Assembly (NCBI GenBank): GCA_965116015.1
Contig: OZ220477.1
Span: 781,704-845,703 of the forward strand
Direction: 5' to 3'
Length of the DNA: 64,000 bases
Source of the DNA: Dehalococcoidia bacterium
GTDB taxonomy: Bacteria; Chloroflexota; Dehalococcoidia; Lucifugimonadales; Australimonadaceae
A model generated the notes under the pieces. It had not been told where the DNA came from and did no database searches. It saw nothing but the letters and a program-made list of their open reading frames with translations. Below are positions 2,870-38,585 of this stretch, piece by piece (positions within the stretch are counted from its first letter, which is position 1; each line of letters begins with the position of its first letter). A program made the position numbers and the translations under genes.

Positions 2870-3081
2870 CGCCCTCCCAAAAGCCACAGGCCCCCTCGCC
2901 CCACAAAAGCGCCCACGCAAGGGCAGGGACCCGCCAGCGCCGCCAACCGGAGCGCACAGCCTCGCCCCCTCATTGCCCCACCGCCGCCCGCAAGGGTAGG
3001 GGCGCCCCAACCAGAAGCCCTCGAAATCGAGAACCCCCTGGCGCGGACAACAACCCCCCGCCGCCCCCAACCGGAGCCCCT

Positions 3082-3723
3082 ATGAGCTACTCCGCCATCG
3101 ACCCCAACAGAACCGCACTCCTCTTCTTCGATATGCTCAACGCCTACTTCCACACCGGATCAGACGACGAACAAGCCGCCGCCAAACCGATGCTCGACAA
3201 CTGCCGCACCGTCCTCGCCCACGCCCGGAACGCCCGCATCCCCGTCTTCTTCGCACGCGCCGACCACCGACCCGACGGCCTCGACTCAGCCCTCCTCTAC
3301 ACCGACTCCGACATCCGAGGCAACCCCTGGCCCAACCCCGAAGAACGCCCCTTCAAACCATACCTCTTGGTCCACGCCAACGACTGGAGCTCCAGCATCG
3401 TCCCCGAACTCGACCCACAGCCAACCGACTACTACATCCCCAAACATCGCTGGAGCGCCTTCCACCAAACCTCCCTCGAACTCAGCCTCCGATCCCGCGG
3501 CGTCGACACCATCATCCTCTGCGGCGGAGCCACCGACGTCGGAATCGCATCCACAGCCTTCGCCGCACGCGACCTCGACTTCAACCTCATCATCGTCAGC
3601 GACGCCTGCCGCTCCGCAAACCACGACAACCACAACCAGCTCATCACACGCATCTTCCCCTTTATGGCCCGCGTCCGAACCACCCAGCAAGTCGCCGCCA
3701 TGATCACGCCATCCCCCCAGTGA
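3082..3723 (+). CDS. Isochorismatase-family (cysteine) hydrolase
   Basis: Real C-terminal part of shadow ORF 1465..3723, starting MSYSAIDPNRTALLFFDMLN. Contains ...KHRWSAFHQTSLELSLRSRGVDTIILCGGATDVGIASTAFAARD. Confidence 0.8.
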   Translation: MSYSAIDPNRTALLFFDMLNAYFHTGSDDEQAAAKPMLDNCRTVLAHARNARIPVFFARADHRPDGLDSALLYTDSDIRGNPWPNPEERPFKPYLLVHANDWSSSIVPELDPQPTDYYIPKHRWSAFHQTSLELSLRSRGVDTIILCGGATDVGIASTAFAARDLDFNLIIVSDACRSANHDNHNQLITRIFPFMARVRTTQQVAAMITPSPQ

Positions 3724-5009
3724 CCTCCCCCTCCCAACCCCCGACCCGCCCGCGGAACAACAACCAGGCGCCCCTCCGCAACCCCGCCGTCCGAGGCCTC
3801 GCCAACCTCTACGCAAGCACGCTCATCTCCGGCGCCGGATGGGCAATGGTCCTCCCCATCACCCCCATCCTCGCCAACCACTTCAACGTCTCCCACGGCG
3901 TCGCCGCCCAAATCATCACCGCCTACGCCCTCGGACGCTTCTTCGGCATCCCCGGCGCCGGCGTCCTCATCGACCGCCTCGGCTCACGCAGAATCCTCAT
4001 CGCAGGCCCAACCCTCGTCCTCGCCGGAGCCCTCAGCGGCGCCGCAACCCCGCTCTTCACCCCCATCCTCGCCGCCGCACTCCTCATCGGCGTCGGCGAC
4101 AGCCTCTGGGCCCTCGGACGCGAAATAGCCGGCATCGACCTCGTCAACAACAACCATCGCGGCAGAGTCCTCAGCGGCTTCCACGGAATCCACTCAGGAG
4201 CCCTCGCAATCGGACCCCTCGCCGGCGGCCTCCTCGCCGACTCCCTCAACTTCCACGCAACATTCCTCGCATTCGCCGCCCTCTCCGCAATCGCCGTCGC
4301 CCTCGGATTCTTCGCCCACGACACCCGCCAACCACCCTCCCAAAACCCTCCCGCCCCAGCGCCCCGCCCCATCAACCTCCCAACCCGCGCGCGCAACCTC
4401 ATCGCCCTCTTCAACGAAATCAAACCCGAACTCCGCCTCACCTACTGGACATTCGTCTTCGCCACATTCGCCGGCTTCACCTTCCGCATCACCCTCCAGA
4501 GCATCCTCCCCCTCTACGCCGACGAACAACTCAGCCTCTCCGCAACCCAGATCGGCGCCCTCTTCTCGCTCTCAGGAGCCGTCGTCCTCGCTATGATCCT
4601 CCCCGCAGGCTTCGTCCTCGACAAACTCGGACGCAAATGGGGCACAGTCCCAAGCACACTCCTCCCCGGAGTCGCCTTCCTCCTCGTCCCCCTCGCCGAC
4701 TCCTACCTCCAACTCGCCATCCTCGTCAGCCTTATGGCCCTCGCCAACGGACTCTCCCTCGGATCCCTCGCCGCAAGCTCCTACGACATCCTCCCCAACC
4801 ACGTCCGCGGCCGCCTCCAGGCATTCCGGCGCACCGCCGCAGAAGTCGGCGGCGTCGGCGCCCCCCTCCTCGGAGGCGTCCTCGTCAACAGCGTCAGCCC
4901 CGCCGCCCCCTTCGTCGCCTACGCCCCCATCCTCCTCGCCGCCGGCCTTATGCTCGCATTCGCAGCCCGCGAAACCCTCGTCAAACCCGGAGCCCCGCCC
5001 TCCGCCTAA
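3720..5009 (+). CDS. MFS transporter
   Basis: 429 aa and multi-TM, with a GRFFGIPGAGVLIDRLGSRR loop motif. The GTG start overlaps the upstream stop (GTGA). Confidence 0.8.
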   Translation: MTSPSQPPTRPRNNNQAPLRNPAVRGLANLYASTLISGAGWAMVLPITPILANHFNVSHGVAAQIITAYALGRFFGIPGAGVLIDRLGSRRILIAGPTLVLAGALSGAATPLFTPILAAALLIGVGDSLWALGREIAGIDLVNNNHRGRVLSGFHGIHSGALAIGPLAGGLLADSLNFHATFLAFAALSAIAVALGFFAHDTRQPPSQNPPAPAPRPINLPTRARNLIALFNEIKPELRLTYWTFVFATFAGFTFRITLQSILPLYADEQLSLSATQIGALFSLSGAVVLAMILPAGFVLDKLGRKWGTVPSTLLPGVAFLLVPLADSYLQLAILVSLMALANGLSLGSLAASSYDILPNHVRGRLQAFRRTAAEVGGVGAPLLGGVLVNSVSPAAPFVAYAPILLAAGLMLAFAARETLVKPGAPPSA

Positions 5010-5198
5010 CGCGCCAGACCCCCTGCCCCCCCAAACCCCCAGCGCCAACCCGGCGCCACAGAGACCATCGCCCCCAGCAAAGAGCAGCATCCGCCAGAGC
5101 GCCGCCCTTAACCCCAACAGCGGCGCCCACGCACACCCCCTCTCCCTCCGATCCAGAACCCCCGCCTCAACCGCAGCGCAACGATGCGAAAAAAACAA

Positions 5199-5274
5199 TG
5201 GCGCCCCAGACAGGACTCGAACCCGTGACCATCTGCTTAGAAGGCAGCCGCTCTGTCCACTGAGCTACTGGGGC
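5199..5274 (-). tRNA. tRNA-Arg (anticodon UCU), CCA encoded
   Basis: Reverse complement folds by hand: acceptor GCCCCAG/CTGGGGC, D stem GCTC/GAGC, anticodon loop CTTCTAA, T arm ACGGG-TTCGAGT-CCTGT, 3' GCCA. Length 76 nt. Confidence 0.9.
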
Positions 5275-5375
5275 CCAATTCGAATATAGTTACACCATCG
5301 AACACGGTCAAGCGCGCCCAGTCGCGCCCTCGCCGCAAACAACCAACCTCCCCCTACGCAAAAAAGGACGCCCTA

Positions 5376-6158
5376 ATGACATTCAACTCCATCCGATTCG
5401 ACGCCCACGGCCCCCTCGCCATCCTCACCCTCGACCGCCAGAACCGACTCAACGCCCTCAGCCGCGAACTCATAACCGAACTCCAACTACTCATCACTAA
5501 CCTCGAAACCAACCACGACATCCGCGTCATCATCGTCACCGGAGCCGGACGCGCCTTCTGCGCCGGCGCCGACATCAAAGAACGCGCCGAAAATATGAAC
5601 GACCTCTCCCTCGCCCGAACCTCCGCCGTCATCTCCCCAACCTTCCGGCGCCTCGAACAACTCCCACAGATCAGCATCGCCGCCATCAACGGCGTCGCCG
5701 CCGGAGGAGGCCTCGAACTCGCAATGGCCTGCGACCTCCGCATCGCCGACCCCGAAGCCCGCTTCGCCCTCCCCGAACTCACCCTCGGAATCCTCCCAGG
5801 CGCCGGAGGAACCCAGCGCCTCCCACGACTCATCGGACCCGCACGCGCCAAAGAAATGATGCTCTTCGGCTCATTCATCGACGCCCCAACTGCCCTCAAC
5901 TGGGGACTCATCAACCACATCGCCCCAGCCGCCAACCTCATCGAAGAAGCCCGAACCTGGGCCGCGCGCCTCCTCGAACTACCCCCCCTCTCCCTCTCAA
6001 ACATCAAAAACGCCGTCAACATCGCAATGAACGTCGACATCGACGCCGGCATCCAATACGAACAACGTTGCTCCGCCCTCCTCGCCCTCACCGACGACCG
6101 CCGCGAAGGCCACGCCGCCTTCGTCGAAAAACGCAAACCCCGCTTCACCGGCCGCTAA
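5376..6158 (+). CDS. Enoyl-CoA hydratase/isomerase (crotonase) family
   Basis: 260 aa with VIIVTGAGRAFCAGADIKE and GGGLELAMACDLRIA motifs. AAGGA RBS upstream. Confidence 0.85.
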   Translation: MTFNSIRFDAHGPLAILTLDRQNRLNALSRELITELQLLITNLETNHDIRVIIVTGAGRAFCAGADIKERAENMNDLSLARTSAVISPTFRRLEQLPQISIAAINGVAAGGGLELAMACDLRIADPEARFALPELTLGILPGAGGTQRLPRLIGPARAKEMMLFGSFIDAPTALNWGLINHIAPAANLIEEARTWAARLLELPPLSLSNIKNAVNIAMNVDIDAGIQYEQRCSALLALTDDRREGHAAFVEKRKPRFTGR

Positions 6159-6437
6159 CAATCCCCCAACGATCCCAGCCCCGACCCCCTCACGACTCGC
6201 GAACGACCCGCAAGCCCCGCAACCCCAACGACTCCCTCCAGCGCCCTGCGCGAAACCCGTCGGCGCCCTGCGCAAGACCCCGTCCCCAACCCGCAACCGC
6301 CCGCCTCGCCGCACATCGCCCCCCATCCCTCACCCCGCCAACGCTCCTGAACCAGCCCCAACGGACACAACTCCACAACTCCAACAAACCAAGTTCAAGA
6401 ACTCCCCCGCCACACGCCCCCAAGCGCCCGAACAACC

Positions 6438-6938
6438 CTACCCGAAGCTCGTCGACACCCAGTGCGCCGACACCCTCCCCGCCCTGAAACCCCACACCCC
6501 CTCCACCCTCATCCCCTCCACATCCGCCGACGTCGTCAACTGCTCCTGAACCAACCGCCCCAACGGACGCGACGCAACAATCGCAACCACCGAATTCGAG
6601 AACGCCCGGCTAAACCCCCTCAACCCCCCTCCAGCCAACCGGCGACCCGCGAGCGCCGCAACCGTCGAAAGCCCCGCAGCCACAACGATATTCGTCCCGC
6701 AGAACGGAGACACCGCCAACCCCCTCTCCCCATCCTGCATCCGCTGCAACGCCTCCCGCGCAGCATCCTCCACCTCGCCCGCCTCCATATTCCCCATCAC
6801 AAGAAACCCGGCAGGAACCGAATAACCAGCCATCGGCCGGTTCTGACCGTGCCGCCCAAGCAGCAACGCAATCGTCGCATGCTCCAACCCATGATTGCGT
6901 CTCGTCCTCTCCCAAAAACCCACCGCAACTTCCCTCAA
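6438..6938 (-). CDS. Conserved hypothetical protein (HGLEHAT motif)
   Basis: 166-aa ORF with strand-appropriate G/T codon bias and a protein-like sequence. Family not recognised. Confidence 0.5.
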   Translation of the reverse strand: MREVAVGFWERTRRNHGLEHATIALLLGRHGQNRPMAGYSVPAGFLVMGNMEAGEVEDAAREALQRMQDGERGLAVSPFCGTNIVVAAGLSTVAALAGRRLAGGGLRGFSRAFSNSVVAIVASRPLGRLVQEQLTTSADVEGMRVEGVWGFRAGRVSAHWVSTSFG

Positions 6939-7182
6939 AGCTCGCCTCCCTCCACTATTTCCCTGATTCTACAGCCCCCTAGACTCCCCCGCGCCAGACC
7001 GGAACTCCCGCGCGCACCGATCCTCCGATGGAACCGCTAGCCCTCGCTGAACCGCGCGACCGGAACCCCCCCGCGCGCACCGATCCTCCCCCCACTGCGC
7101 GCATCGCTCCCCCCGCGAGACCGGACAGCGCCTGCCGCGCTCCCTCCTACCGCCAGTGAACAGAAACCCGCAGGGTAGGGCG

Positions 7183-7746
7183 CTACAACAGCCGAACCAA
7201 CCCGATCCCCGCCGCCGTCAGCGCCGTAACGATTGCCCCGGCGATCGCCACACCCGCCGCAATCGCCGGAAGCCCTCGCCGAGCCGGCATCCCCAGCGCC
7301 CACACCGCCAGCGTCCCCGTCCAGGCCCCCGTAAGCGGCAGAGGAATCGCCACCACCAGCACGATCCCCAAAAAACCCAACCGCCGAACCCGATCCCCCC
7401 ACTGCGCCTCAACCCGCCGAGTCCGCCACCGCAGCAAACGCCCAACCAAATGCTCCTGACGCTCTATCCGCTCTCCCACCGTCCGCAGCCCAAACAGAAC
7501 AAACGGCACAGGCACAAGATTCCCCACAACCGCCAGCGCATACGCCTTCAGCCACCACATATCGTACGTCAGCGCCGCCAGCGGAATCGCCGCACGCAGC
7601 TCCCCAACAGGCGTCATCGCAGCCAGCGCAACCAGCAACTCATCTCGCAATCCCACAGATGCCCAACCTCGACCAGAAGATAGCGCGGCGACCCCTCCCG
7701 CCTCCGCCCCAAGCAAAGAGGAAACCGCCCGCTCCCTACGCATCAT
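7183..7746 (-). CDS. Small multidrug-export-like membrane protein (COG2426-like)
   Basis: 187 aa with TPVGELRAAIPLA near the N-terminus and 4-5 TM segments. Start codon uncertain. Confidence 0.55.
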   Translation of the reverse strand: MMRRERAVSSLLGAEAGGVAALSSGRGWASVGLRDELLVALAAMTPVGELRAAIPLAALTYDMWWLKAYALAVVGNLVPVPFVLFGLRTVGERIERQEHLVGRLLRWRTRRVEAQWGDRVRRLGFLGIVLVVAIPLPLTGAWTGTLAVWALGMPARRGLPAIAAGVAIAGAIVTALTAAGIGLVRLL

Positions 7747-7821
7747 AGCAGCAGAAAACCCTCCGGCAAGAGCGTTCTAAACATTTTCCGAACAACAACT
7801 AGCGCTTCGGATAGTCAGATG

Positions 7822-7850
7822 TTGACAGACAGTGATACTTCGCATATAAC
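7822..7850 (+). promoter_or_regulatory. Sigma-70-like promoter TTGACA-17-TATAAC
   Basis: TTGACA at 7822-7827, 17-nt spacer, TATAAC at 7845-7850. Lies in an AT-richer unskewed patch about 70 nt upstream of the 7918 gene. Confidence 0.5.
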
Positions 7851-7917
7851 TCAACTGTAGGGAGGCTTCGCTGAGCTCCGCCGCCCACGCGGCGGGAGAA
7901 AAAGGAGGAGTCTTGCA

Positions 7918-8142
7918 ATGGCGAAAAAGACGCAGAAAATGACCCAAGTCGAAGACCGGTTCCACCAACCCCTCGAGCGTCTCCTGCCCGAGATGATCAA
8001 CGAGTACGGCCTCACCGTCACCGCCGCCCAGCTCGAAGTGTCCAAAGCGACCCTCAGCTACTGGCTCCTCAAGCTCGGCATCAACGTGCGGCGCGTCGCC
8101 CTCGCCCCCGGCGAATCGCTCGAAATCAAACGCGTCAGCTAG
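7918..8142 (+). CDS. Small HTH-like protein (74 aa)
   Basis: AAAGGAGGAG RBS 7 nt upstream of ATG. The segment LTVTAAQLEVSKATLSYWLLKLG looks like a helix-turn-helix. Confidence 0.6.
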   Translation: MAKKTQKMTQVEDRFHQPLERLLPEMINEYGLTVTAAQLEVSKATLSYWLLKLGINVRRVALAPGESLEIKRVS

Positions 8143-8171
8143 CCCAAAACGCCAGCGCGGCGCCAAACGAA

Positions 8172-8227
8172 GAGGCCCGGCGTTCCCCAATCCCCGACAA
8201 GCTCGGAGACACCGAACGCCGGGCCTC
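8172..8227. repeat. 14-bp perfect inverted repeat GAGGCCCGGCGTTC / GAACGCCGGGCCTC with 28-nt spacer
   Basis: Arms at 8172-8185 and 8214-8227, 30 nt downstream of the 7918 gene stop. No U tract, so terminator function is uncertain. Confidence 0.6.
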
Positions 8228-8422
8228 TCGCTATCCAGCCCAGCGCCGCCCCAAGACCCCGCCAGCAAAGCCCCGCCGCTCAGCGCCCCGCCGCTCAGCG
8301 CCCCGCCCGCACCGGACCCCCCTCGCCGATGCGGGCAGCCCGCCTCAGTCCCCCACGCTCCCCCGAACCCCCTCGCCAAGCGAACCCCAGCCCCCCCCCC
8401 GAAGCGCCCTCCATATCTCACC

Positions 8423-8451
8423 TTGACTTGCCGAATCGCTAGTGGTACAAC
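8423..8451 (+). promoter_or_regulatory. Sigma-70-like promoter TTGACT-17-TACAAC
   Basis: Hexamers at 8423-8428 and 8446-8451, upstream of the cytochrome c gene and just after a C10 tract. Confidence 0.4.
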
Positions 8452-8512
8452 GTGATAGAAATCACAACCTTGCAGGCCCCCTCGCAACCTGCATCGGACT
8501 CGAGGTAACCCC

Positions 8513-8998
8513 GTGGGCCCTCGCCAACCCGCGCCTCTACTAGCGATCGCCATCCTCGCCCTCACAGCCCTCTCCCTCGCTGCGTGCGCAAACGGCGCCC
8601 CCGTCTCCGCAGCCGAATGCTTCATCGCCAGCGACGGACGCATCGTCCCCGCCTCCGGCCCCGACTGCGACCCTCCCCCAGGAGCCGACGTCGAACCAAC
8701 CCCAACCTTCACCCCCATCCCCGTCGGCGGCGGACCCACCGGCGGCGCTGGACTCTTCATCGCCAACGGCTGCGCCACCTGCCACACCCTCGCATCCGTC
8801 CCCCAAGCGCGCGCAAACGTCGGACCCGACCTCACCGGCATCGGCGCCCAAAGCCCCGACTACATCCGCGAATCCATCATCAACCCCGGCGCCGTCATCA
8901 CCGAGGGCTACGAAGACGGCCTTATGCCCATCAACTTCGCCGAAACCATCCCCGAATCCGACCTCAACGCCCTCGTAGACTTCCTCGCAACCCAGTAG
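8513..8998 (+). CDS. c-type cytochrome, lipoprotein-anchored
   Basis: Signal/lipobox LSLAAC, heme motif CATCH, and a distal Met in EDGLMP. Confidence 0.8.
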   Translation: MGPRQPAPLLAIAILALTALSLAACANGAPVSAAECFIASDGRIVPASGPDCDPPPGADVEPTPTFTPIPVGGGPTGGAGLFIANGCATCHTLASVPQARANVGPDLTGIGAQSPDYIRESIINPGAVITEGYEDGLMPINFAETIPESDLNALVDFLATQ

Positions 8999-9233
8999 CC
9001 CCCCGCACCCCCGCCTAACAGCGCGCGACACATTGCCCTCCTACCCCAACCGCCAGCCCAGTGCGCCGCCTGCCCCTCCCCCATCCGGCGCCCGGCGCCC
9101 CGCAGCTCAACCCGAACCCAGCGCCCCTGCATCCCCCACTGCGCCGCATCCCCGACTAAGCCGCCCCGGTGAAGCCCCCTCGCTTAGGCCGCCCCGCTTT
9201 AGACCATCCCGCTTTAGGCTAGCTTTAGGCTAA

Positions 9234-9262
9234 TTGAAGCTTGCCCCCCGCCCGCATATACT
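9234..9262 (+). promoter_or_regulatory. Sigma-70-like promoter TTGAAG-17-TATACT upstream of dnaN
   Basis: Hexamers at 9234-9239 and 9257-9262. Preceded by four direct GCTT(T)AGR repeats at 9182, 9196, 9211 and 9222. Confidence 0.45.
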
Positions 9263-9312
9263 AGGCCGCCAGCTACCCCGCCCCCCAACCACAACATCTT
9301 GAGGTCCAGCAG

Positions 9313-10440
9313 ATGCAGATCAAGTGCCTCCAGGAGAATCTCAGCCACGGCCTCGGCGTCGTCCAGCGAGCCGTCGCCACCCGCACAACACTCCCCATCA
9401 CACAGCACGTCCTCCTCTCCACCGACGAAGGACGCCTCAAACTCTCCGCCACCAACCTCGACATCGCCATCAGCACATGGATCGGCGGCGAAATATCCTC
9501 CGAAGGCTCCGTAACCGCCCTCGCGCGAACCCTCATCGACCTCGTCAACTCCCTCGGACCCCAAACCATCGACCTCGCCTCCAACTCCCAGGAACGCGGC
9601 GTCGAAATCAAAGGCAACCGCTCCCAACACTCCATCAACGGCGCCAGCGCCAGCGAATTCCCACCCATGCCCGCCATCGGCGACGGATCCACAACCCGCA
9701 TCAACGGATACCAACTCCGCGACGCCATACACCAAGTCGCCTTCGCCGCCGCCGTCGAAGACTCCAGACCCGTCCTCACAGGCGTCAACGTCGAACTCGA
9801 AGGATCCCAGATCACCCTCGCCGCCGCCGACGGCTTCCGCCTCGCCGTACGATCCGCCAAACTCCTCGACCCCGTCGACGAGAAACTCTCCGTCATCATC
9901 CCCGCAAGAGCCCTCGCCGAAATCGAACGCCTAATCGACAGCGACGACCCCATCGACATCGTCATCAACACACAGCGAAGCCAGATCCTCTTCCGCCTCA
10001 AAAACATCGAATTCGTCTCCCAACTCATCCAGGGAACCTTCCCCAACTACAGCCAACTCATCCCCCACGAACGAACCACACGCGCAGTCGTCGACCTCGG
10101 CGAACTCAAACGCTCCTCTCGAACCGCCGCCATCTTCGCCAAAGACGGCTCCGGCATCATCCGACTCCTCATCGACTCCGAATCAGGCGACTCCGGCAAA
10201 CTCACCATCTCCTCGCGCGCCGACGAAATCGGCGACAGCGTCGGCGACATCGAAGCCGACATCGAAGGCCCCGTCGGCAAAATCGCCTTCAACAGCCGCT
10301 TCCTCAACGACGTCCTCGCCGTCATCGCCAAAGACAAAGTCGCCCTCGAAATGACAACCTCCTCAAGCCCAGGCGTCATACGACCCCTCGACGACCCCGA
10401 CTACGTCCACGTCGTAATGCCAATGTTCGTCCAGTGGTAA
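9313..10440 (+). CDS. dnaN: DNA polymerase III beta sliding clamp
   Basis: 375 aa: MQIKCLQENLSHGLGVVQRAV...LTGVNVELEG..ITLAAADGFRLAV...FPNYSQLIP...PGVIRP. GAGG RBS. Confidence 0.92.
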   Translation: MQIKCLQENLSHGLGVVQRAVATRTTLPITQHVLLSTDEGRLKLSATNLDIAISTWIGGEISSEGSVTALARTLIDLVNSLGPQTIDLASNSQERGVEIKGNRSQHSINGASASEFPPMPAIGDGSTTRINGYQLRDAIHQVAFAAAVEDSRPVLTGVNVELEGSQITLAAADGFRLAVRSAKLLDPVDEKLSVIIPARALAEIERLIDSDDPIDIVINTQRSQILFRLKNIEFVSQLIQGTFPNYSQLIPHERTTRAVVDLGELKRSSRTAAIFAKDGSGIIRLLIDSESGDSGKLTISSRADEIGDSVGDIEADIEGPVGKIAFNSRFLNDVLAVIAKDKVALEMTTSSSPGVIRPLDDPDYVHVVMPMFVQW

Positions 10441-11950: not shown

Positions 11951-11956
11951 CCCCCA

Positions 11957-11973: not shown

Positions 11974-12009
11974 ACGCGCGCCCCGCCCCGTTGCGTGTAA
12001 GCTCCCCCC

Positions 12010-13272
12010 GTGACCCTCCCCCCAGAGCCCAACCCCCACCCTCCCCCCGAACCCGCCACGCGCCGGCGACCCCTCCTGTCGCTCCTCCTCCAGCTCCACC
12101 TACCCTCCATCGCCCTCGGATTCGGAATGGGCGCCACAATCCCCGTCGTCCCCGAATTCGCCAAATCCTTCGGCGTCGGCCCCGGCCAGGCATCCCTCGT
12201 CTTCGTCGCCAACATGCTCGGAGGCCTCACCGCCAGCGTCCCCATCGGATACCTCCTCGACAGAATCGGCCGGCGACGCATCCTCATCCTCGGCCCAGCC
12301 CTCACCGCACTCGCCGCACTCCTCACCGCCTCCGCCGCCTCATTCCCCCTCCTCCTCCTCTACCGCTTCATCGGAGGATGGGGAACCCAAATGTGGACCC
12401 TCAGCCGACTCACCATGATCGCCGACTCCAACCCCTCCGCCTCCCGCGGACGCATGATCACCAGCCTCCTCGGCGTCCAGCACGTCGGAACCCTCGCCGG
12501 ACCCCTCGCCGGAGGCCTCATCGCCGTAACCTACGGCCTCCAAGCCGCCTTCATCCTCCAGGGAGCCTTCGCCCTCCTCGCCGTCGCCCCCGGATTCCTC
12601 ACCCCCGAAACCGCCCCCAAAGGCCAACCCCAAAACCCCGCAGGGCAGGGGAGCCCAACCCCCGCCTTCGCCTGGAGATCCCTCCTCTCACCGCCAATCC
12701 CACTAATGTTCCTCGCCCAATGGCTCGGAATGACCGCCCGCGGCGGCATCGTCGCCGGCAGCACAGTCTTCGTCTACGCCTCCTACGCCTACAACGCCGA
12801 CCCCCGAACCCTCGGCCTCCTCAGCTCCCTTATGGCCGGCGCCGGCATCCCCCTCACCTTCGCCGCCGGATACCTCATGGACCGCTTCGGACGCAAAACC
12901 ACCATCGTCCCAGGCCTCGCCATCCTCGGCGCAGCCATGACCTTCCTCGGCGCCGCCTCATTCCTCAACCTCGGATTCTCCTACTTCGTCGCAGGCTTCA
13001 TCGTCCTCCAAACCACCAACAGCCTCCTCACCGGCTCCTGGCAAGTCATCGGCTCCGACCTCGCCCCGCCAGCCGCCAGAGGACGCTTCTTCGCCGTCGG
13101 ACGCACCGTCACCCAGGCCGGCTTCGCCACAAACCCCGCCCTCTTCTCCCTCTGCGTCGCACTCTCCGGCTTCACCCTCGCCCTCGGCGTCATCGGAACC
13201 GCCGGAATACTCTCCTCCCTCATCCTCGCCGCCCTCGTCCCCGAAACAAACCGCCCCCGCAACCCCCCCTAA
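12010..13272 (+). CDS. MFS transporter
   Basis: 420 aa, multi-TM, with LLDRIGRRRILILG motif. GTG start. Confidence 0.8.
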   Translation: MTLPPEPNPHPPPEPATRRRPLLSLLLQLHLPSIALGFGMGATIPVVPEFAKSFGVGPGQASLVFVANMLGGLTASVPIGYLLDRIGRRRILILGPALTALAALLTASAASFPLLLLYRFIGGWGTQMWTLSRLTMIADSNPSASRGRMITSLLGVQHVGTLAGPLAGGLIAVTYGLQAAFILQGAFALLAVAPGFLTPETAPKGQPQNPAGQGSPTPAFAWRSLLSPPIPLMFLAQWLGMTARGGIVAGSTVFVYASYAYNADPRTLGLLSSLMAGAGIPLTFAAGYLMDRFGRKTTIVPGLAILGAAMTFLGAASFLNLGFSYFVAGFIVLQTTNSLLTGSWQVIGSDLAPPAARGRFFAVGRTVTQAGFATNPALFSLCVALSGFTLALGVIGTAGILSSLILAALVPETNRPRNPP

Positions 13273-14956: not shown

Positions 14957-15122
14957 TCGGAATGTGGAGCGAACAAGGAGAGCGCCGCTTGCGCGGCGGC
15001 AAGCGGAACGACTAGGGGAAAGCGGAGTGCATTCCGAGAGGGTAGCGGTGGGGTAGGGGTAGGAGAACCCAGAATTCCGATAAGCCGGAGTAAACCGAGC
15101 GGCGGCCGCAAGGAACAGCCGC
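14957..15122. other. G-rich, hairpin-dense intergenic patch (candidate structured RNA or relic), strand undetermined
   Basis: Nested perfect stems: TCGGAATG (14957-14964) with CATTCCGA (15030-15037); CCGCTTGC (14985-14992) with GCAAGCGG (14999-15006); GCGGC (15099-15103) with GCCGC (15118-15122). Composition is opposite to the surrounding DNA. Confidence 0.35.
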
Positions 15123-20870: not shown

Positions 20871-21044
20871 ACCCCAGCTCACCTCACGCGCAGAACACAA
20901 CATCCCCGCTGACCGCTACAGCGTCGATGACATCCCCAGCTCGCCCGTCCCGCCCAGAACAGAACAGCGCGACAGGGTAGGGCAGGAAGACGCCTTCCAC
21001 CAAGCCATCCGTTCCCCTTCCCCCCAAAGAGCGCGCCGCCGCCT

Positions 21045-25649: not shown

Positions 25650-25679
25650 GGGCAGGGGAGCCCAAGCGGAGCCCTGCCC
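25650..25679 (-). terminator. 8-bp GC hairpin GGGCAGGG / CCCTGCCC just 3' of the MT-A70 gene (member of the GGGYAGGG family)
   Basis: Arms at 25650-25657 and 25672-25679 with a 14-nt loop. No U tract, so terminator function is tentative. Confidence 0.35.
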
Positions 25680-28010: not shown

Positions 28011-28395
28011 GCGCAGAGTAGGGTAGCCCCGACGCACACCGGCCTCGACACTCCAGGCAGCCCCAACCCCCCGCAGAGTAGGGCAGAACGCCCTGCAAGC
28101 CCCCGAATCCCCAGCCAACCCCCCAGCGTGCGCAGGGGAGGGGTAGAACGCCCCGCAAACCCCGCGAACCTCCACGCCAACCCCCAGCCCCCGCGCAGGG
28201 TAGAGGTGTGCGCCTGAACTGGGAGCCGCCAGCAGCGCCCAACCTCAGCGCGCAGGGTAGGGCGGAACGCACTGCAAACCCCCAGCGTCCCAAGCCAACC
28301 CCAGCGCCGGGGTAGGGCAGAACGCCCTGCAAGCCCCCGAATCCCCAAGCCAACCCCCAGCGCACGCAGGGCAGGAGTAGAACCCCCAACAGCCG
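28011..28395. repeat. Tandem array, ~7 copies of a 57-63-bp unit carrying a GCAGGGTAGGGCAGAACGCCCTGC hairpin
   Basis: Units start near 28011, 28071, 28129, 28192, 28250, 28307 and 28364. The best-conserved units are 28071 and 28307. Confidence 0.85.
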
Positions 28396-31471: not shown

Positions 31472-31518
31472 ACCCCCCGAGGATACGGCAACCCTCCCCA
31501 GTGAGGTGCCGGTAGAGA

Positions 31519-31780
31519 GCCGAGCCCTCCGCATACAGCAGCGCCCACGATGTTCCCGCTCACCGCATCCCCCTTCACGCCGAGCCCTCCGCATACAGCA
31601 GCGCCGGAGTACGGAAAGCGCGCCCCCCAGCGACGCAAGCCGAGCCCTCCGCATACAGCAGCGCCCCTCTCAGGAGCGCATGGAGTGCCTACGGCCGAGC
31701 CCCCCGCATACAGCGGCGCCCCCGTGTATGTGGCTCTCCTGATGCGCGGGACTGACGCCTCCCCGCACACAGCAGCCCCG
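31519..31780. repeat. CRISPR-like mini-array: 27-nt direct repeat x4 (+1 degenerate) with unrelated 28-36-nt spacers; no cas genes in window
   Basis: GCCGAGCCCTCCGCATACAGCAGCGCC at 31519, 31579 and 31639, one variant at 31694, and a degenerate copy near 31757. Spacers are 33, 33, 28 and 36 nt and show no mutual similarity. Confidence 0.4.
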
Positions 31781-31962
31781 CCCGCAACCGCCTGCCCCGC
31801 GCTCCCCACAGCCCACTCCTGCCCTTGCGAATACCCCCACCCTCAACGCCCCCGCCCCGCGCTCCCCCAATCGCCCCGCACCGAACGCTCCCCCCGCGCC
31901 CCACAACCCTTGCCCCTGAAACCCATCCGGCGTAGCCTTCTCCCGCCTCAGGAGAACGTCCA

Positions 31963-32745
31963 ATGAACCAAACTCGCAAGCGCGAACTAGCCCAGGAAAT
32001 GCAAACCCTCGCCCAGCGCTTCTGGAACGCCGAAGCCGAAATCTGCCGCCAATTCTGGAGCGTCCCACGATCCCCCGCCGAACAAACCCCCTGGCTCCGC
32101 CTACAGGTCTACAAAGAAATGCACGGCTCCGGACTCTCAGCAAACCCCGGAGGCATCATCCAGGGACTCATCCACAAACTCGACCGCAACCTCCCCCTCG
32201 CCCAAACCCAACAACAACGCCGCAACCTCGAACGCGACATCCAAGTCCTCCGCGAAGAATTCACCCACTACCGCCTCTTCGCCGACATCCTCGAAGAAGC
32301 CACAGGCGAACCCGTCCGCATCCAGAACCTCCCCCAATGGCAACTCCCCCAAGACGCCGAACTCCAGCGCATCCGGCAGCAAGCCCGCCAACAACACGGA
32401 CACATCGGCGAAGCAGCCATCGCCTTCACCGAAGGCGGAGGCGCCGCCTTCTTCCAAGAAGGACGCAACATCAGCGGCGACCCCCTCTCCCAACGCATCG
32501 CCGACGCCTGCGCCATCGTCTACAACGACGAAACCGAACACGGACAACACGGCGCAGCCCAATTCCAGCACAACCTCCACACCGAACAAGAATGGGCCCA
32601 AGCCCGCGCCCTGGTCATCGACATCTGCCGCCAGCGGCTCCGAATGCGCTACGAAATGTTCGCCCTCCCCATCAACGAAACCCGCATCAACCAAATCGCC
32701 AACGCCCAAACCAACCCCTCTCCCCAATCACCACCCTCCCCATAA
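31963..32745 (+). CDS. Ferritin-like (putative di-iron) protein
   Basis: 260 aa, helical, with two E-x-x-H motifs (REEFTHY and DETEHG). Confidence 0.5.
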   Translation: MNQTRKRELAQEMQTLAQRFWNAEAEICRQFWSVPRSPAEQTPWLRLQVYKEMHGSGLSANPGGIIQGLIHKLDRNLPLAQTQQQRRNLERDIQVLREEFTHYRLFADILEEATGEPVRIQNLPQWQLPQDAELQRIRQQARQQHGHIGEAAIAFTEGGGAAFFQEGRNISGDPLSQRIADACAIVYNDETEHGQHGAAQFQHNLHTEQEWAQARALVIDICRQRLRMRYEMFALPINETRINQIANAQTNPSPQSPPSP

Positions 32746-32785
32746 CAAGCGGGTGCCCATTTTTGAATGTCCAAGGAGAAGAGGA

Positions 32786-33238
32786 ATGATGCGCGCCGTC
32801 GCCAGTCTGCTAACGATTGCCAGCGCGCTAGCGTTGGCAGCTGCCTGCGGAGGCGATGACATCGCTGTGGCCTCCAACGCGCTGGATTGCAGGACAATGG
32901 AATGGTCACCGGATGAGTATTCCCGATACCGATTGGAGTACCGAGGGTTCATCCTCTGGCATGGCTCCCTTGAATGGGATGCCCCTTGGGCCATGGTAGG
33001 CGCATCCCCATACTTTGCGGACTTCCTTTCCGCTAGAGACACCAATTTAATGACACCCTTTCCAGACTCCGGACTCACTTCCCCGCATACTGCTAAAAAC
33101 TGGGCATGCGCAACAGCGGACAAGATTGCTCGTGCTTGTAGTCACCTAAAGACTGATCATCGGTGGCCTTGGTGGGAAAAACGGTCAAAGCTCTATGTCT
33201 ACTGTGCATCCGATATTACAGACAATCACCCTTCGTAG
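32786..33238 (+). CDS. Lipoprotein, family unknown, in a compositionally foreign patch
   Basis: MMRAVASLLTIASALALAAACGG lipobox with AAGGAGAAGAGG RBS. Codon usage lacks the local C/A bias. Confidence 0.6.
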   Translation: MMRAVASLLTIASALALAAACGGDDIAVASNALDCRTMEWSPDEYSRYRLEYRGFILWHGSLEWDAPWAMVGASPYFADFLSARDTNLMTPFPDSGLTSPHTAKNWACATADKIARACSHLKTDHRWPWWEKRSKLYVYCASDITDNHPS

Positions 33239-33532
33239 AGGGCAACCTCCCCAAACCCAGCGCCCCCCGCGGCGCAAGCTCCTGCCGCGTCGCCCCTAGC
33301 CAGCCCATCGCTCCCAGAGCCAGCCGCCCGCAACAAACCCACAACAGCCAGGCTGCCCCGAACCTTGAGACGCCCCCTCGCGATCCTCAAGCTCCGGAGC
33401 AGCGAACGACCCCGCAACGAAAACGCCCCCGCCCGCCGTAGAGCAGAGGCGCCTCTCCCGCCCCTTTCGCTATACTGATGCCGCGGCCTCCCGCAGTGCT
33501 GGAGCAAACCAACACCCCTCAAGGATGAACCA

Positions 33533-33760
33533 ATGGACGACCGAACCTGCGCAACCTGCATCTACCTCGACAAGCAAGCCTCCCCGCCGCAGGCCGGCTA
33601 CGGAAGCCACATAGGACGATGCCGCTGCAACCCCCCGCTCCTCCTCGACGGTGGAGGCGGCGGCGGAGTATGGCCCCTGGTGAGCGCAACCGACTGGTGC
33701 GGCGAATGGGACGACGGCCTCGACGACGACGACTACGAGGACGAAAACGACGAAGACTAA
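33533..33760 (+). CDS. Small Cys-rich protein with poly-acidic tail (75 aa)
   Basis: C-x2-C ... C-x-C ... WCGEW pattern followed by DDGLDDDDYEDENDED. Confidence 0.45.
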   Translation: MDDRTCATCIYLDKQASPPQAGYGSHIGRCRCNPPLLLDGGGGGGVWPLVSATDWCGEWDDGLDDDDYEDENDED

Positions 33761-33771
33761 CGCCGCCCCCC

Positions 33772-34853
33772 CTAAACCCGAGGATCCCCCCTGAACGCCA
33801 GATAGTGATTCCCCTTCGACACCGCACCCAAACCCGTCACCGCCCGCGACCACGACTCCCCACCATCCTCCGACCACAACACATCCCCGTCCGACGTCGC
33901 AGCTAGCGCCTGAACGCCGCCCCCCGACTCCTCCAGCGTCATCGCCTCCACGCTCGCCGTAAGATCCCCCTCCAACCCAGCCCCCCTCAGCCTCTCCCAC
34001 GTCTCTCCCCCGTCCCGGCTCCGCGAGATCCGCGTCGACGCCGTCCCATCACGATGCCAACTCCCCGGACTCTTCTGCCCAGCCGTAACCAACATATACC
34101 ACGGATCGCTCGGCTTATACACCAACTGATCCGGATACCCCCCAAACTCGCTCCCCCGCCCGAACACATTCACCCACGTAACCCCATCATCCCGCGACAT
34201 CCACAAACCCTCGCCACCCGTCACAAACATCCGCCCCGGATCCAACGGATTCGACACCAACCGATGCACATCGTTGTACATCCCCGAATCTCCGTAAACG
34301 TATCCCCCCCATCCGTCGACCGGTACAACCCCCCCTGCTCGATGCTCGCATACACCGTAGACGCATCCCCCGGACGAAAACTAATATGCTTCAGATGCGC
34401 AACATGCGGCGGCGCAGGAAACCGCCACGCGCTCGTCTCCTGAGCCCCCAGCGCCGGCTTCTCACTCCACGTCCCTCCCAGATCATCGCTCACGAACAAC
34501 CGCGCCGGCTCCGTCCCCGCAAACAACCGCGTCCTCCCCCCAACCTCCGCCGTCGACAAACTATAAACGTTCCGCTCCGTAAGACCCTCGTCCCGCCTCT
34601 CCCAACTCCGCCCATCATCCTCGCTCGCATACACCCCCCCGTACTGAACCCCGCAGAACCACATCCCGCTCCGCGGATCCTGAACCAGCGCATGGATATG
34701 CCTTCCCTCCAGCGTCCGCTCCACAGCCGACCATCCCCCCGCATCGCGCACGATCCGCACAACCCCATCGACCGTCCCCACCAGCGCCTCCACGCTCAGC
34801 GACGACGACACAACCACATTCGACCCTCCCCCATGTGAAACCCCAATAGTCAT
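33772..34853 (-). pseudogene. BNR/beta-propeller paralog with a 1-nt frameshift (or assembly error)
   Basis: ORFs 34221..34853 and 33772..34281 join as ...DGGDTFTEIRG / MYNDVHRLV, colinear with DGGETWREAREGIHPDIHGL of the 19923 paralog. One base is missing in a C4 run at 34282-34285. Confidence 0.65.
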
Positions 34854-34937
34854 AACCTCACATCCCTTTCCCTAATCGTTCCCTAGCCCAATCGACCCCT
34901 AGCCCAACTGCCGCCTCTAGCCTCCCGCAGTATGGTG

Positions 34938-35720
34938 TCAGGACGGAGAACTCCGAAAGCAATCGAGGCAGCGGGGCCTTTTCATGCTCGTCTTCCGCTC
35001 CTTGCCGCACGAGTGGCAATACTTCTCCTCATAGTCGTAATTCTGGTACTCGTTCCACGTCTTGTAGTGCTCCAGGCAATAAGGCCTATCCGGATTGAGA
35101 GCAAGATCTCGCCTGCACCGAATGCAGTACCCGCCCGTGCTCGCCGGCGCTCTAGGCGCGCTCCTCCTCGACCTCGCCGCAGGCGCCCGCTCGGAAGCAG
35201 CCGGGCGAGCCGCCGACTTCGCAGGAGCAGGGGAGACAGCAGCCCCCGACCGCTCAGCGCGCTCCCGAAGCCTCTCGACATAGCGGTCCAATTCCCTGTA
35301 GAGCTCCCCATGCTGCGCCTTCTCAACCCGAACCCCAAGCTCCCGGGCGTTATTGAAGGACGACTCAAGCAGATTCATCGAAGTCGCCAGCGCCGTCGAT
35401 TCATTCATATAAATCTTGGCGTGGAGCCACTTAACCGGATAAACAGTCGCCCCCTCGCCCTTCAGCCACGCCACGCCCTCATCCTGCGTCTTCTCGGCGC
35501 GATAGAAAATCTCAAATCGCAGCCCCTTCCGATTCAGAGCATCTCCGAGGAGCCTCGCCAGGTGCTCGTGATGCTTGTTATATGGAGACACCAGGTAAAG
35601 ACGCTCCTTCGCCTCCTTGATAACGTCATACACAGCCTGCTGCACATCCTCATCGAACAAGAACTGCGGCGGCCGACCCTCATCCCCAACGCTGGATGCA
35701 GACTTCCTGAAAGGAACCAA
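34938..35720 (-). CDS. PLD-superfamily (single HKD, Nuc-like) nuclease with C-terminal zinc-ribbon region
   Basis: HKD-like WLHAKIYMNESTALATSMN. C-terminus CIRCRR...CLEH...CHSCG...CLDC. Probable TTG start at 35720, 5 nt after AGGAGG (the ORF track starts at 35780). Ordinary, unskewed codon usage. Confidence 0.65.
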   Translation of the reverse strand: MVPFRKSASSVGDEGRPPQFLFDEDVQQAVYDVIKEAKERLYLVSPYNKHHEHLARLLGDALNRKGLRFEIFYRAEKTQDEGVAWLKGEGATVYPVKWLHAKIYMNESTALATSMNLLESSFNNARELGVRVEKAQHGELYRELDRYVERLRERAERSGAAVSPAPAKSAARPAASERAPAARSRRSAPRAPASTGGYCIRCRRDLALNPDRPYCLEHYKTWNEYQNYDYEEKYCHSCGKERKTSMKRPRCLDCFRSSPS

Positions 35721-35809
35721 AGCTCGCCTCCTATGCCTCTGCTTGACCGTATCCCCTCGCCCCCGCCCACCTCCCCCCAACAGGGGAGGAGGGCAGGGCG
35801 CCCCCCAAC

Positions 35810-37072
35810 CTACCGATCGATCCTACGCTCCTCCAGAACCTCCACCTTGTACTCCGCATCGTACTCCGCCGGCATCTCCACCTGGCGCGACAACTCAACC
35901 TGCTTATGCGTCCGCGTTGACTCATTGATCGCAAGCCCAACCTCCAGCGTCGCCATCCCCCACGCCCCGCTATGAAACACCGGACGCCCAAGCCGCACCG
36001 CGTTGTACAACTCCTCCAACTCCTGATCCCGATGCAGCGGATCAGAATCCACAATCAACTCCGTCAACCCATCATCCGTATACCTGTACAACCCCTCCGG
36101 ACCCTGACGCAGCTCCCCAAACTCGCAACTCACAATCACGATCCCCAGATCATTCGGCTTCCACCGCTCCGGACCATGCTCCCGGCGGAAAAACTGCCGC
36201 TCACCCTCCCCCCCGATCCGCAACGACAACTTCTCCTCATCCTCAGGACGCGTCCCCGCCGCCATAGCCCTCCGGATACTATTCCGCTCCCCCGGCGTAT
36301 ACCGCGTATTCGCATCACCCCACGGCACAAGCTCCGACGCCACAAAATACCCATACCCATTGTGGATCGCCACACCCGTAACCCCGCTCTCAAACTCCAG
36401 AAACGCCGCATAGTACCCCGGAATAGACCGATACTTCATCCACTGACCATAAGCCCCCCGAACACTCCTCGCCTTCCCTCCCGCGATCAAACGAATGCTG
36501 TCGATCTGATGCGGAGTCTGACGATACACCAACCCTCCCCCCTGATCCGGATCAAGCTCATCCGCCGTCCGCGGACGTATCACCCAATCCGTATACGCAA
36601 TCGCATTCACCGCCCCAAGCTCCCCCAACTCCCCCGACGCCACAATCTGACGCATCAACCTCACATGCGGCTGGAAACTCTGCGTATGCCCCGCCACCAG
36701 CTTCACCCCATTCCGATCGCACGCCTCCACCATCTCCTCAGCCTGCCGAATATCCAGCGCCATCGGCTTCTCAACCACAACATGCTTCCCATGATTCGCC
36801 GCCAGCACAGTCATCGGCGCATGGAACCGATTCGGCGTCGATATCCACACCGCCTCAACATCCGGATCCCGAACAAGCCCCTCCGCGCTGTCGAAAACCC
36901 GCGCCTCCTCATACCGAGCCTTGAACCGCGCACGAACATCCGGATTCACATCCGCCCCAGCGAACAGATCGATATACGGAGCCCGCTCCATCGGAGGCAA
37001 CATCTCCGCAGCCCCAACCCCGATCCCGATCACCCCCAACTTCAGCGGCCTCGCCTCTCCTGTCGTCATCAT
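35810..37072 (-). CDS. Gfo/Idh/MocA-family oxidoreductase
   Basis: Internal start MMTTGEARPLKLGVIGIGVGA with GGAAGGAG RBS. EKPMA motif present. Confidence 0.8.
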   Translation of the reverse strand: MMTTGEARPLKLGVIGIGVGAAEMLPPMERAPYIDLFAGADVNPDVRARFKARYEEARVFDSAEGLVRDPDVEAVWISTPNRFHAPMTVLAANHGKHVVVEKPMALDIRQAEEMVEACDRNGVKLVAGHTQSFQPHVRLMRQIVASGELGELGAVNAIAYTDWVIRPRTADELDPDQGGGLVYRQTPHQIDSIRLIAGGKARSVRGAYGQWMKYRSIPGYYAAFLEFESGVTGVAIHNGYGYFVASELVPWGDANTRYTPGERNSIRRAMAAGTRPEDEEKLSLRIGGEGERQFFRREHGPERWKPNDLGIVIVSCEFGELRQGPEGLYRYTDDGLTELIVDSDPLHRDQELEELYNAVRLGRPVFHSGAWGMATLEVGLAINESTRTHKQVELSRQVEMPAEYDAEYKVEVLEERRIDR

Positions 37073-37374
37073 CGCTCCTTCCTCATACTGCAATCCCGCT
37101 TGCCAAAACCCTCTCCCGTCCCTCAACCCTGTTCCCGACCCAACTCCTGCCCGCCCCAGCCACAACCCCCCGGCCACCCAACGGCTCGCGCCCAACTCCC
37201 CCGAGCCCAGTCCTCGCCCGGAGACGACGCGCGCCGGCGCCGAAACCCTACAGCAACTCCCCCGTCCCCTCAACCAACCCCCTGGCCCCCTCCCCCCGCC
37301 GCCCCCCCCCCCAACCCCGCGACAGGGCAGGGGAGACTCCCTCGCGCCCCCTCCCCCCAGCTATCATAGCCCCC

Positions 37375-38352
37375 ATGAACCACCACAGACCCCCGCTATT
37401 CTCCGTCGGCGGAAGCTCCGGCCTCGGATGGCAAACCCTCCTCGACGTCTGCAAAACCTGCGAGCGCGCCGGCTACTTCGCCTTCTACCCATCCGACCAC
37501 CTCATGACCGTCCAGGCCGGCAAAGGACCCTCCCCAGACCGCCTCGACGCCCTCGCCGCGCTCGCCGCCCTCTCCGCCCACACCTCCACCCTCCGCCTCG
37601 GAGTCCTCGTCGCCAACAACCTCTTCCGACACCCCGTCGTCACCGCCAAAATCCTCAACACAATCGACCACGCATCCAACGGACGCGCAGAACTCGGCCT
37701 CGGCGCCGGATGGGCCCAACCCGAACACGACGCCCACGGATTCCCCTTCCCCCCGCCCCCTCAGCGCATCGACATGCTCGACGAAGCCCTCTCCGTCATC
37801 AAAGCCCTCTGGACCACCGAACCCGCCAACTTCAAAGGAACCTACTACAACCTCCGCGACGCCCCCCACATCCCCAAACCCATCCAGAAACCACACCCCC
37901 CCATCATCGTCGGAGGCATAAGCCCACGCACAATGCGCGTCGCACTCAAACACGCCGACGACTGGGACCAGATCGCCCCCATCCGGCAAGTCGCCCGCAA
38001 CATCCAGCGCTTCCGCGACCAAGCCGCCGAAAACAGACGCAACCTAACCCAAATGCGCTTCTCCGTCCAAACCCCATTCAACTTCGTCCAAACCCGCGCC
38101 CAAGCCAACCGCATCATCGACAACGCCATCGCCAGCCTCAACTACGGAGCCCAAAACCCCGCCCCCGGCTACAACAACCTCCGCGAACACATCGCCGACT
38201 CCCGACTCCTCGGATCCCCCGACGAAATCACCGACCAGATAGGCCGCTGGATCGACGCCGGAGTCAACCACTTCATCCTCACAACCCCGCGCCCCTTCTC
38301 CCCCGAACCCCTCGAAACCTTCATCGCCAAAGTCGCCCCAGCCTTCCGCTAA
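37375..38352 (+). CDS. Luciferase-like monooxygenase (LLM-class flavin/F420 oxidoreductase)
   Basis: 325 aa with LRLGVLVANNLFRHPVVTAK and NGRAELGLGAGW. Confidence 0.8.
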   Translation: MNHHRPPLFSVGGSSGLGWQTLLDVCKTCERAGYFAFYPSDHLMTVQAGKGPSPDRLDALAALAALSAHTSTLRLGVLVANNLFRHPVVTAKILNTIDHASNGRAELGLGAGWAQPEHDAHGFPFPPPPQRIDMLDEALSVIKALWTTEPANFKGTYYNLRDAPHIPKPIQKPHPPIIVGGISPRTMRVALKHADDWDQIAPIRQVARNIQRFRDQAAENRRNLTQMRFSVQTPFNFVQTRAQANRIIDNAIASLNYGAQNPAPGYNNLREHIADSRLLGSPDEITDQIGRWIDAGVNHFILTTPRPFSPEPLETFIAKVAPAFR

Positions 38353-38585
38353 CCCAACCCCCAACCCGCACCCACACACAGCGGACGCCCCCTCCATCGT
38401 CCCCCGGGAACGCGGAATGCGGACGCCCCTCAATGACCCCCCAACGCCCCCCAGAACAGGGCAGGGTAGGGACCCCAACGCGCCCCCGCGCCCCCTCAAA
38501 CCTGTCATCTTCGCGACACTTCCCCGTTGCGCCATACGCCACACCCCCCGTACCCTGTCCCTTATCCCCCCTCTCCTACGCCTCC

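Follow-up and report, generated by a model that had tools for sequence, protein, structure and literature searches.

A stretch of 64,000 nucleotides from a Dehalococcoidia bacterium (Chloroflexota; contig OZ220477.1, positions 781,704 to 845,703 of the forward strand; hereafter the window) carries dispersed copies of the octamer GGGYAGGG, many of them in the longer form GGGYAGGGGAG or in overlapping pairs (GGGCAGGGTAGGG). From sequence comparison, this Dehalococcoidia lineage very probably uses the word as its FtsK-orienting polar sequence (KOPS), pointing at a dif-like 28-mer that lies 4.5 kb past the right edge of the window (genome position 845,703). The word is over-represented, it has a chromosome-wide polarity, and this polarity flips at the dif-like site, which is conserved, in six genomes; genes for FtsK and for Xer recombinases are present. 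The FtsK gamma domain presumably binds the word, and the 28-mer is probably an active dif. An initial annotation of the window had remarked on the resemblance to the Escherichia coli KOPS consensus and set it aside as coincidence, a view that the flip in six genomes and the presence of an FtsK gamma domain and Xer proteins argue against.

The genome under study (G000) is 2.39 Mb long in a single contig and 96% complete. Its GC skew, computed along the chromosome, forms a sawtooth of domains reaching up to +/-0.45, and the skewed domains contribute 1.44 Mb of G-poor strand to the octamer counts given below. An exact-protein look-up yielded no public gene calls, and genes were taken from a crude gene caller of our own (1,880 genes, 83% coding). 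Two control words were used, GGGRAGGG, with a purine at the centre, and the composition-matched reversed word GGGAYGGG.

GGGYAGGG is oriented forward from about 2.1 Mb through 0 to 845,841, and in reverse from 852,042 to about 2.09 Mb. In a pattern search with the longer GGGYAGGGGAG, the forward copies, with a single exception, fall from 2.16 Mb across 0 up to 0.846 Mb and every reverse copy falls from 0.874 to 1.965 Mb, regardless of local skew. When binned by arm, GGGYAGGGGA has 36 forward and 2 reverse copies on the arm that runs from 2.1 Mb across 0 to 0.9 Mb, and on the arm from 0.9 to 2.1 Mb it has 35 reverse and 3 forward copies; the corresponding figures for AGGGYAGGG are 68/8 and 49/10. 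The polarity of GGGRAGGG merely tracks local skew. In all, 453 of 572 GGGYAGGG copies in the genome (0.79) lie on the leading strand of the map so drawn, with leading/lagging counts of 42/10 (0.81) in the 7% dif region and 100/39 in composition-neutral regions (p = 2e-7). Where the leading strand is G-poor, GGGYAGGG stands at 93/78 against 9/272 for GGGRAGGG, and leading copies occur once per 5.4 kb. An octamer screen that required polarity in all three classes of leading strand (G-rich, neutral and G-poor) returned AGGGTAGG, CAGGGTAG, CAGGGCAG and GCAGGGCA at the top; the screen is unbiased as to the word, but it took origin and terminus from the motif itself, and independent anchors are therefore needed. 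A working idea that the 11-mer GGGYAGGGGAG is always found on the G-poor strand was dropped: 46 of its 47 copies obey the dif-centred polarity, including those on G-rich strands.

One of these anchors is the dif-like site. We scanned the genome with the general bacterial dif consensus and obtained two matches. The better one, ATGTCGCACTATTGATGTTATGTAAACT at 850,175-850,202 (68,472-68,499 in window coordinates, outside the window), is intergenic and falls in the 6-kb gap between the last forward copy of the motif, at 845,841, and the first reverse copy, at 852,042. All copies on the surrounding plateau are on the plus strand up to the former and on the minus strand from the latter. Skew does not confound this flip, because the plateau is neutral in composition. 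The XerD arm of the site (TTATGTAAACT) matches the Bacillus subtilis dif. A dif/Xer system has been predicted earlier in Dehalococcoides (PMC3025954).

The same arrangement is found in relatives. A search with the 28-mer at up to 3 mismatches missed them, while 4 mismatches and a degenerate pattern recovered the site. In G003, G002 and G004, which belong to the same genus as G000, each fetched interval contains one 28-mer, with 4 differences from the G000 site, precisely at the motif flip. With the degenerate pattern, whole genomes yield one dif-like site each in G000, G003, G002, G015, G022 and G042, which span four genera; G004 was scanned across its fetched interval. The motif flips at the dif-like site in six genomes, namely G000, G003, G002, G004 and two representatives of other genera, G022 (9/0 forward/reverse to the left, 0/11 to the right) and G042 (12/0 and 0/15). 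The dif zones of the five relatives, 310 kb over three genera, have no skew to speak of (leading-strand GC skew -0.03 to +0.04), and pooled they contain 90 leading and 4 lagging copies of GGGYAGGG, one per 3.4 kb, and 10 leading and 0 lagging copies of GGGYAGGGGAG, while the reversed word GGGAYGGG is even at 19/19. GGGRAGGG is itself biased in these zones (45/12), as is, to a similar degree, the purine-only G-rich word GGGAGGGG (16/5). Three relatives show the 11-mer GGGYAGGGGAG in the same two-armed arrangement, and a weak preference for G at +8 and +10 is seen in relatives as in G000. Close to dif, copies are dense, at one per 3-4 kb.

The expected protein partners are encoded. FtsK_alpha, FtsK_SpoIIIE and FtsK_gamma domains occur in one open reading frame (ORF) of G000, with PF09397 scores of 83.8 and 79.9 bits, and the gamma domain aligns to the structures 2J5P of E. 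coli and 2VE8 and 2VE9 of Pseudomonas aeruginosa, 2VE9 being the KOPS complex entry. Two Xer-type genes were found, one of them inside the window, about 8 kb from the dif-like site:

59726-60712, minus strand: XerC/XerD-family (XerD-like) tyrosine recombinase gene; TIGR02225 at 313.9 bits (curated cut-off 329.6); Pfam Phage_integrase and Phage_int_SAM_1

The second, at 0.94 Mb, scores 228.7 bits against TIGR02225, so that both fall under the equivalog cut-off. Five landmark genes, rplB (plus strand, 2.256 Mb), rpoC (minus, 1.45 Mb), 16S rRNA (minus, 1.65 Mb), dnaA (minus, 1.84 Mb) and dnaN (plus, in the window), are co-directional with the replichore map drawn from the motif, which brackets the inferred origin at 2,091,342-2,123,758 and puts the terminus at 0.85 Mb.

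Within the window, the region 1-43,000 shows how the word fares under adverse composition. GC skew there is about -0.4, and the plus strand is 45% C and 20% G. GGGYAGGG occurs 13 times on that strand, against 0.12 expected from an order-1 Markov model and 0.32 from an order-3 model, and 5 times on the G-rich minus strand; the control GGGRAGGG occurs once on the plus and 39 times on the minus strand (Fisher p = 3e-8). Over the whole window GGGNAGGG occurs 66 times against 39 +/- 6 in shuffles, a count of which the strand split is the informative part. The enrichment over Markov models, which the annotation had proposed to check, is real. The annotation's statement that runs of three or more G fall mostly within the motif does not hold, since only 25 of 136 such runs, and 23 of 83 intergenic ones, do so. 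The plus-strand copies in the window are as follows:

2921-2928, plus strand: GGGCAGGG; leading strand, dif-pointing, intergenic
2994-3001, plus strand: GGGTAGGG; leading strand, intergenic
7173-7180, plus strand: GGGTAGGG; leading strand, intergenic
12643-12650, plus strand: GGGCAGGG(GAG); leading strand, within a major facilitator superfamily (MFS) transporter gene (12010-13272, plus strand; Pfam MFS_1)
15051-15058, plus strand: GGGTAGGG in a G-tract cluster (GGGTAGCGGTGGGGTAGGGGTAGG); intergenic
20975-20982, plus strand: GGGTAGGG; leading strand, intergenic
25650-25679, plus strand: GGGCAGGG(GAG)-N14-CCCTGCCC; leading-strand copy with an 8-bp inverted partner
28255-28317, plus strand: two GGGTAGGG copies (28255, 28310); intergenic 55-nt unit, tandemly duplicated
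35791-35798, plus strand: GGGCAGGG; leading strand, intergenic
37325-37335, plus strand: GGGCAGGGGAG, the extended form; 42 nt ahead of a gene for a luciferase-like monooxygenase
38459-38471, plus strand: GGGCAGGGTAGGG, two overlapping copies (38459, 38464); intergenic
44053-44060, plus strand: GGGCAGGG; leading strand, inside a gene
54777-54789, plus strand: GGGCAGGGCAGGG, two overlapping leading-strand copies (54777, 54782); composition-neutral part of the window

Most of these had been placed correctly from the letters alone: the copies at 2921, 2994, 7173, 12643, 25650, 28255, 28310, 37325 and 38459/38464 were given within a few nucleotides, while those given as 15040, 20957 and 35786 were off by 5-18 nt. 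A copy reported at 28133 is in fact GGGGAGGG at 28135, whose centre is not C or T. The span assigned to the motif, 2921-38472, does contain plus-strand copies, but three more (44053, 54777 and 54782) lie beyond it. The placement of the 12643 copy in an MFS coding sequence was confirmed, as was the identity of the 16 nt (GGGCAGGGGAGCCCAA) common to 12643 and 25650. The hairpin GGGCAGGG-N14-CCCTGCCC at 25650 is present as described; it is the only one of its kind, and its inverted arm adds a reverse copy at 25672-25679. One case was checked for conservation of position, that of the spacers flanking the luciferase-like monooxygenase gene: the closest relative, G003, lacks counterparts in place of the copies at 37325 and 38459/38464. 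These intergenic spacers cannot be aligned between the two genomes (window 37250-37380 against L002 1380-1510), with an adjacent gene at 83% identity, and in G000 they consist of runs of C and A.

The retention seen in the window extends over the genome. On the G-poor strands of its skewed domains GGGTAGGG occurs 44 times against 1.4 expected and GGGCAGGG 52 times against 3.7, for a total of 96 GGGYAGGG against about 5; they are the top over-represented octamers on these strands, behind poly-G only, whereas GGGAAGGG (8 copies) and GGGGAGGG (7 copies) show no enrichment there. The per-strand density of GGGYAGGG is nearly constant across strand skew, over which that of GGGRAGGG drops tenfold. 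In G-poor intergenic DNA, TA (36) and CA (31) are the predominant loops of closely spaced GGG..GGG pairs. By our gene calls, 67 of 99 G-poor-strand copies (68%) are intergenic. In domains where the leading strand is G-poor, 70% of leading copies are intergenic, against 28% in composition-neutral DNA, where most copies lie within genes. Extended or overlapping forms are over-represented among these leading copies. The extended GGGYAGGGGAG is found 22 times in G-poor intergenic DNA, against 3 times in G-rich and 3 times in neutral intergenic DNA, and 22 of 23 GGGYAGGGGA copies in the G-poor class have G as the next base. Selection holds GGGYAGGG copies against mutation bias, mostly in intergenic DNA, as the annotation had argued from their persistence, listing a protein-binding site among its options. 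Mutation pressure appears to remove chance copies and copies within genes, and selection to keep or remake strong copies where the sequence is free to vary.

Flank clustering shows that most copies lie in unique sequence; the repeat families and tandem units are small and few. No flank position carries more than 0.7-1 bit, where core positions have about 2 bits, and there is little beyond GG.A before the core and GAG after it, so that the conserved extended context once proposed for the motif is weak; the intergenic consensus, GG.AGGGYAGGGGAG.G, has a 5-nt periodicity of G-tracts. Small intergenic tandem or dispersed repeat units, each with a leading-strand copy of the word, occur at window 28255-28317 and at genome positions 753,048-753,229, 779,056-779,185, 1,611,376-1,611,735 and 1,538,037-1,538,110, and also as a five-locus family at 4566, 8183, 34776, 53886 and 2386803. 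Local duplication may be one route by which the word multiplies in G-starved domains.

Several observations weigh against the identification as KOPS. At E. coli N1296, R1300 and E1303, the KOPS-contacting positions of the gamma domain, the G000 protein reads P, R and D, so that only the Arg is identical; Firmicute homologues also differ at these positions. Gene-strand bias is weak (54% co-oriented), and no DnaA-box cluster was found at the inferred origin of G000, so that the main supports of the replichore map are the motif, the dif-like site and the five landmark genes. Near the dif-like site the sign of the GC skew is the one usual at an origin. Neither the 70% intergenic share nor the additional GAG on the G-poor leading strand is a described property of KOPS.

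One rival reading splits the copies into two populations, ordinary KOPS octamers and a separate intergenic GGGYAGGGGAG element of the G-starved domains with another function. The concentration of the 11-mer in G-poor intergenic DNA and its lack of positional conservation beside the monooxygenase gene speak for such a split. However, 11-mers follow the dif-centred polarity with a single exception, they do so at 10/0 in relatives without skew, and these relatives share the weak preference for G at +8 and +10; we regard the split as improbable. A Chi-like recombination hotspot, or another replication-polar signal read by a DNA-end-processing enzyme instead of FtsK, would likewise be G-rich, over-represented and co-oriented with the leading strand, and these features alone, common to Chi and KOPS, do not separate the two. 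That the word equals the KOPS consensus of gamma-proteobacteria, and that it flips exactly at the dif-like site with dense copies beside it, points to FtsK. Furthermore, in a search for RecBCD and AddAB helicase-nucleases that covered the RecC and PDDEXK_1 families, no RecC was found in G000, and PDDEXK_1 nuclease domains were confined to a 230-aa ORF and, as a weak match, one of 561 aa, so that no AddAB-sized protein was seen. A Chi-like role is thus quite unlikely.

Structural and mobile-element explanations, both of which the annotation had raised, fare worse still. Selection of a G-quadruplex or i-motif for DNA or RNA structure would agree with the 5-nt G-tract periodicity and with a few four-tract loci (e.g. 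genome 41121 and 958630), but the canonical pattern of four tracts of at least three G with loops of 1-7 nt occurs in only 6 of 67 intergenic copies, which is no excess. Moreover, GGGGAGGG and GGGAAGGG should be equally able to form quadruplexes, but at 7 and 8 copies they have not been kept in the way that GGGCAGGG and GGGTAGGG have (52 and 44), and neither a flip at dif nor C/T specificity would follow from structure alone; we consider this very unlikely. The annotation's own preference was a repetitive extragenic palindromic (REP)-like or miniature mobile element, in which a RAYT-type transposase would spread a short extragenic palindrome. The predominance of intergenic copies on G-poor strands, the few small repeat families and tandem units, the perfect hairpin at 25650 and the GTAG within GGGTAGGG are what such an element might leave. 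But hairpin context is the exception, as a nearby complement of at least 6 nt accompanies 6 of 67 intergenic copies and is present in 12% of control windows; the flanks of most copies are unique; and the copies follow a strict replichore polarity, neither paired nor inverted, which holds also for octamers inside the genes of relatives. The RAYT/TnpA-REP gene for which the annotation had proposed a search did not appear, as a PF01797 (Y1_Tnp/RAYT) search gave 0 matches in G000 and detected the control genomes. Of the alternatives this one seems to us the least credible.

Two further candidates were rejected. Small inversions copying C-rich words were ruled out, as CCCTCCCC, with 694 copies, gives only 7 of GGGGAGGG. 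A promoter or terminator element was ruled out by the mixed orientation of the copies relative to flanking genes (end/start 23, end/end 18, start/start 16, start/end 10).

If GGGYAGGG is KOPS, the gamma domain of the septal translocase FtsK would read its copies on double-stranded DNA. FtsK would load one way round and pump DNA to where the motifs converge, and this point would be the 28-bp dif at genome 850,175-850,202, where Xer recombinases would resolve chromosome dimers. The window would then represent the last 70 kb of one replichore before dif, and functional copies would be on its plus strand because the whole window lies on one replichore arm. In the region 1-43,000 local mutation bias would have stripped G from the leading strand, so that chance G-rich words were lost and selected guide words remain, and intergenic DNA would be favoured because codon constraint does not oppose guide words there.

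The KOPS, or FtsK recognition sequence (FRS), is reportedly read by the FtsK gamma domain (Bigot 2005; Levy 2005; Lowe 2008). At two of the three contact positions named above the gamma helix of G000 differs from that of E. coli, and the host here belongs to the Chloroflexota. The KOPS/FRS of E. coli, Vibrio cholerae and P. aeruginosa is 5'-GGGNAGGG-3' (PMC3384302, PMC2680272), the same octamer as GGGYAGGG apart from the central base, and is likewise found on the leading strand and directed from the origin side to dif. Published skews are 0.91 for E. coli KOPS (1.0 near dif), at one copy per 12.6 kb, 0.80 for V. cholerae and 0.79 for the SpoIIIE recognition sequence (SRS) of B. subtilis (PMC3384302); against this range for KOPS and SRS of 0.79-0.91, skew here is 0.79-0.96. 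Further features shared with E. coli-type KOPS are the exact flip at dif, high density near dif, overlapping copies, FtsK alpha, beta and gamma domains and Xer recombinases. The system differs in that, where selection is visible, the centre is only C or T, GGGRAGGG not being kept against the bias; in its weak extra preferences (A at -1, GAG at +8 to +10); and in that over 0.5 Mb the word is on the G-poor strand and mostly intergenic. The B. subtilis SRS, GAGAAGGG, and the Lactococcus lactis KOPS, the 7-mer GAAGAAG (PMC3384302), have the same function and the same kind of polarity, but their words differ, being A-rich words of low-GC Firmicutes. The architecture-imparting sequences (AIMS) of Hendrickson and Lawrence (2006), cited in PMC3384302, are likewise skewed octamers with replichore-tracking polarity, and our octamer screen follows the same idea; they form a statistical class that is not known to have an assigned reader protein, whereas in G000 a specific mechanism is suggested by the word together with dif and the FtsK gamma domain. 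The motif resembles REP/REPIN elements and their RAYT systems in consisting of short, G+C-rich, mostly extragenic repeats; here, however, RAYT, a conserved imperfect palindrome of 20-40 nt and inverted pairs are lacking, and polarity is strict at the chromosome scale.

Our literature search found no description of KOPS in Chloroflexi; with the assignment, an FtsK guide word of the E. coli type, its centre being C or T, would become known from the Dehalococcoidia too. The KOPS map would locate dif, and roughly the origin, on a chromosome where GC skew cannot serve, and would provide an independent replichore map for the study of extreme skew domains. With near-normal density apparently kept up by selection (13 copies per 43 kb) where mutation bias alone would leave 0.1-0.3, G000 may serve as a natural experiment on the amount of KOPS that a chromosome requires.

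Skew is negative to the left and positive to the right of the dif-like site, decaying over about 200 kb (window 1-44000; genome 640,000-1,040,000). Read against the KOPS/dif map, the leading strand is G-poor, or inverted, along about 0.5 Mb of the chromosome, and the sawtooth skew is thus out of register with the replichores. One tentative explanation, which we would not put above a possibility, is that two polarities are uncoupled: forks, or at least FtsK, would converge at 0.85 Mb, and skew would be produced not by ordinary origin-to-terminus fork passage but by a different directional process with its start at the neutral plateaus. Such a process might be replication, break-induced or recombination-dependent, that sets out from the dif zone, or it might be the replication of integrated elements in situ. 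Were this so, the G-starved leading strand would display the minimal selected set of KOPS, about one per 4-5 kb, of the optimal form GGGYAGGGGAG and mostly intergenic, and would give a direct read-out of selection strength on KOPS words.

Other repeats of this genome affect the octamer counts. Poly-G tracts of 15-17 nt lie exactly between TTGACA (-35) and TAnAnT-type (-10) hexamers, the layout of slipped-strand phase-variable promoters, at genome positions 4691, 8301, 11320, 23945, 29039, 34896, 49805, 55877, 57916, 61591, 65437, 284719, 287953 and 2369394-2386920. The enrichment of G8 on G-poor strands arises because 18 such tracts lie there. Many of them adjoin a gene family with Pro/Thr repeats. 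Long Pro/Thr-rich coding repeats (0-80,000, 277,000-285,000 and 530,700-532,000) are the source of ACCCCCAC, which has 883 copies on one strand and 0 of its complement, and counts of GGGTAGGG on G-rich strands are inflated by GGGGTAGGGGTG, antisense to these repeats. Two arrays resembling clustered regularly interspaced short palindromic repeats (CRISPR) lie at about 122,784-126,000 and 1,136,300-1,146,600; one repeat ends in ...CCTCCACGCGCGGGAGATAC, with a period of about 61 nt and at least 50 units, and the other is TTCCCCCGCACACGCGGGGATAGACC. The array ending in ...CCTCCACGCGCGGGAGATAC accounts for the enriched words GCGGGAGA and GGGAGATA.

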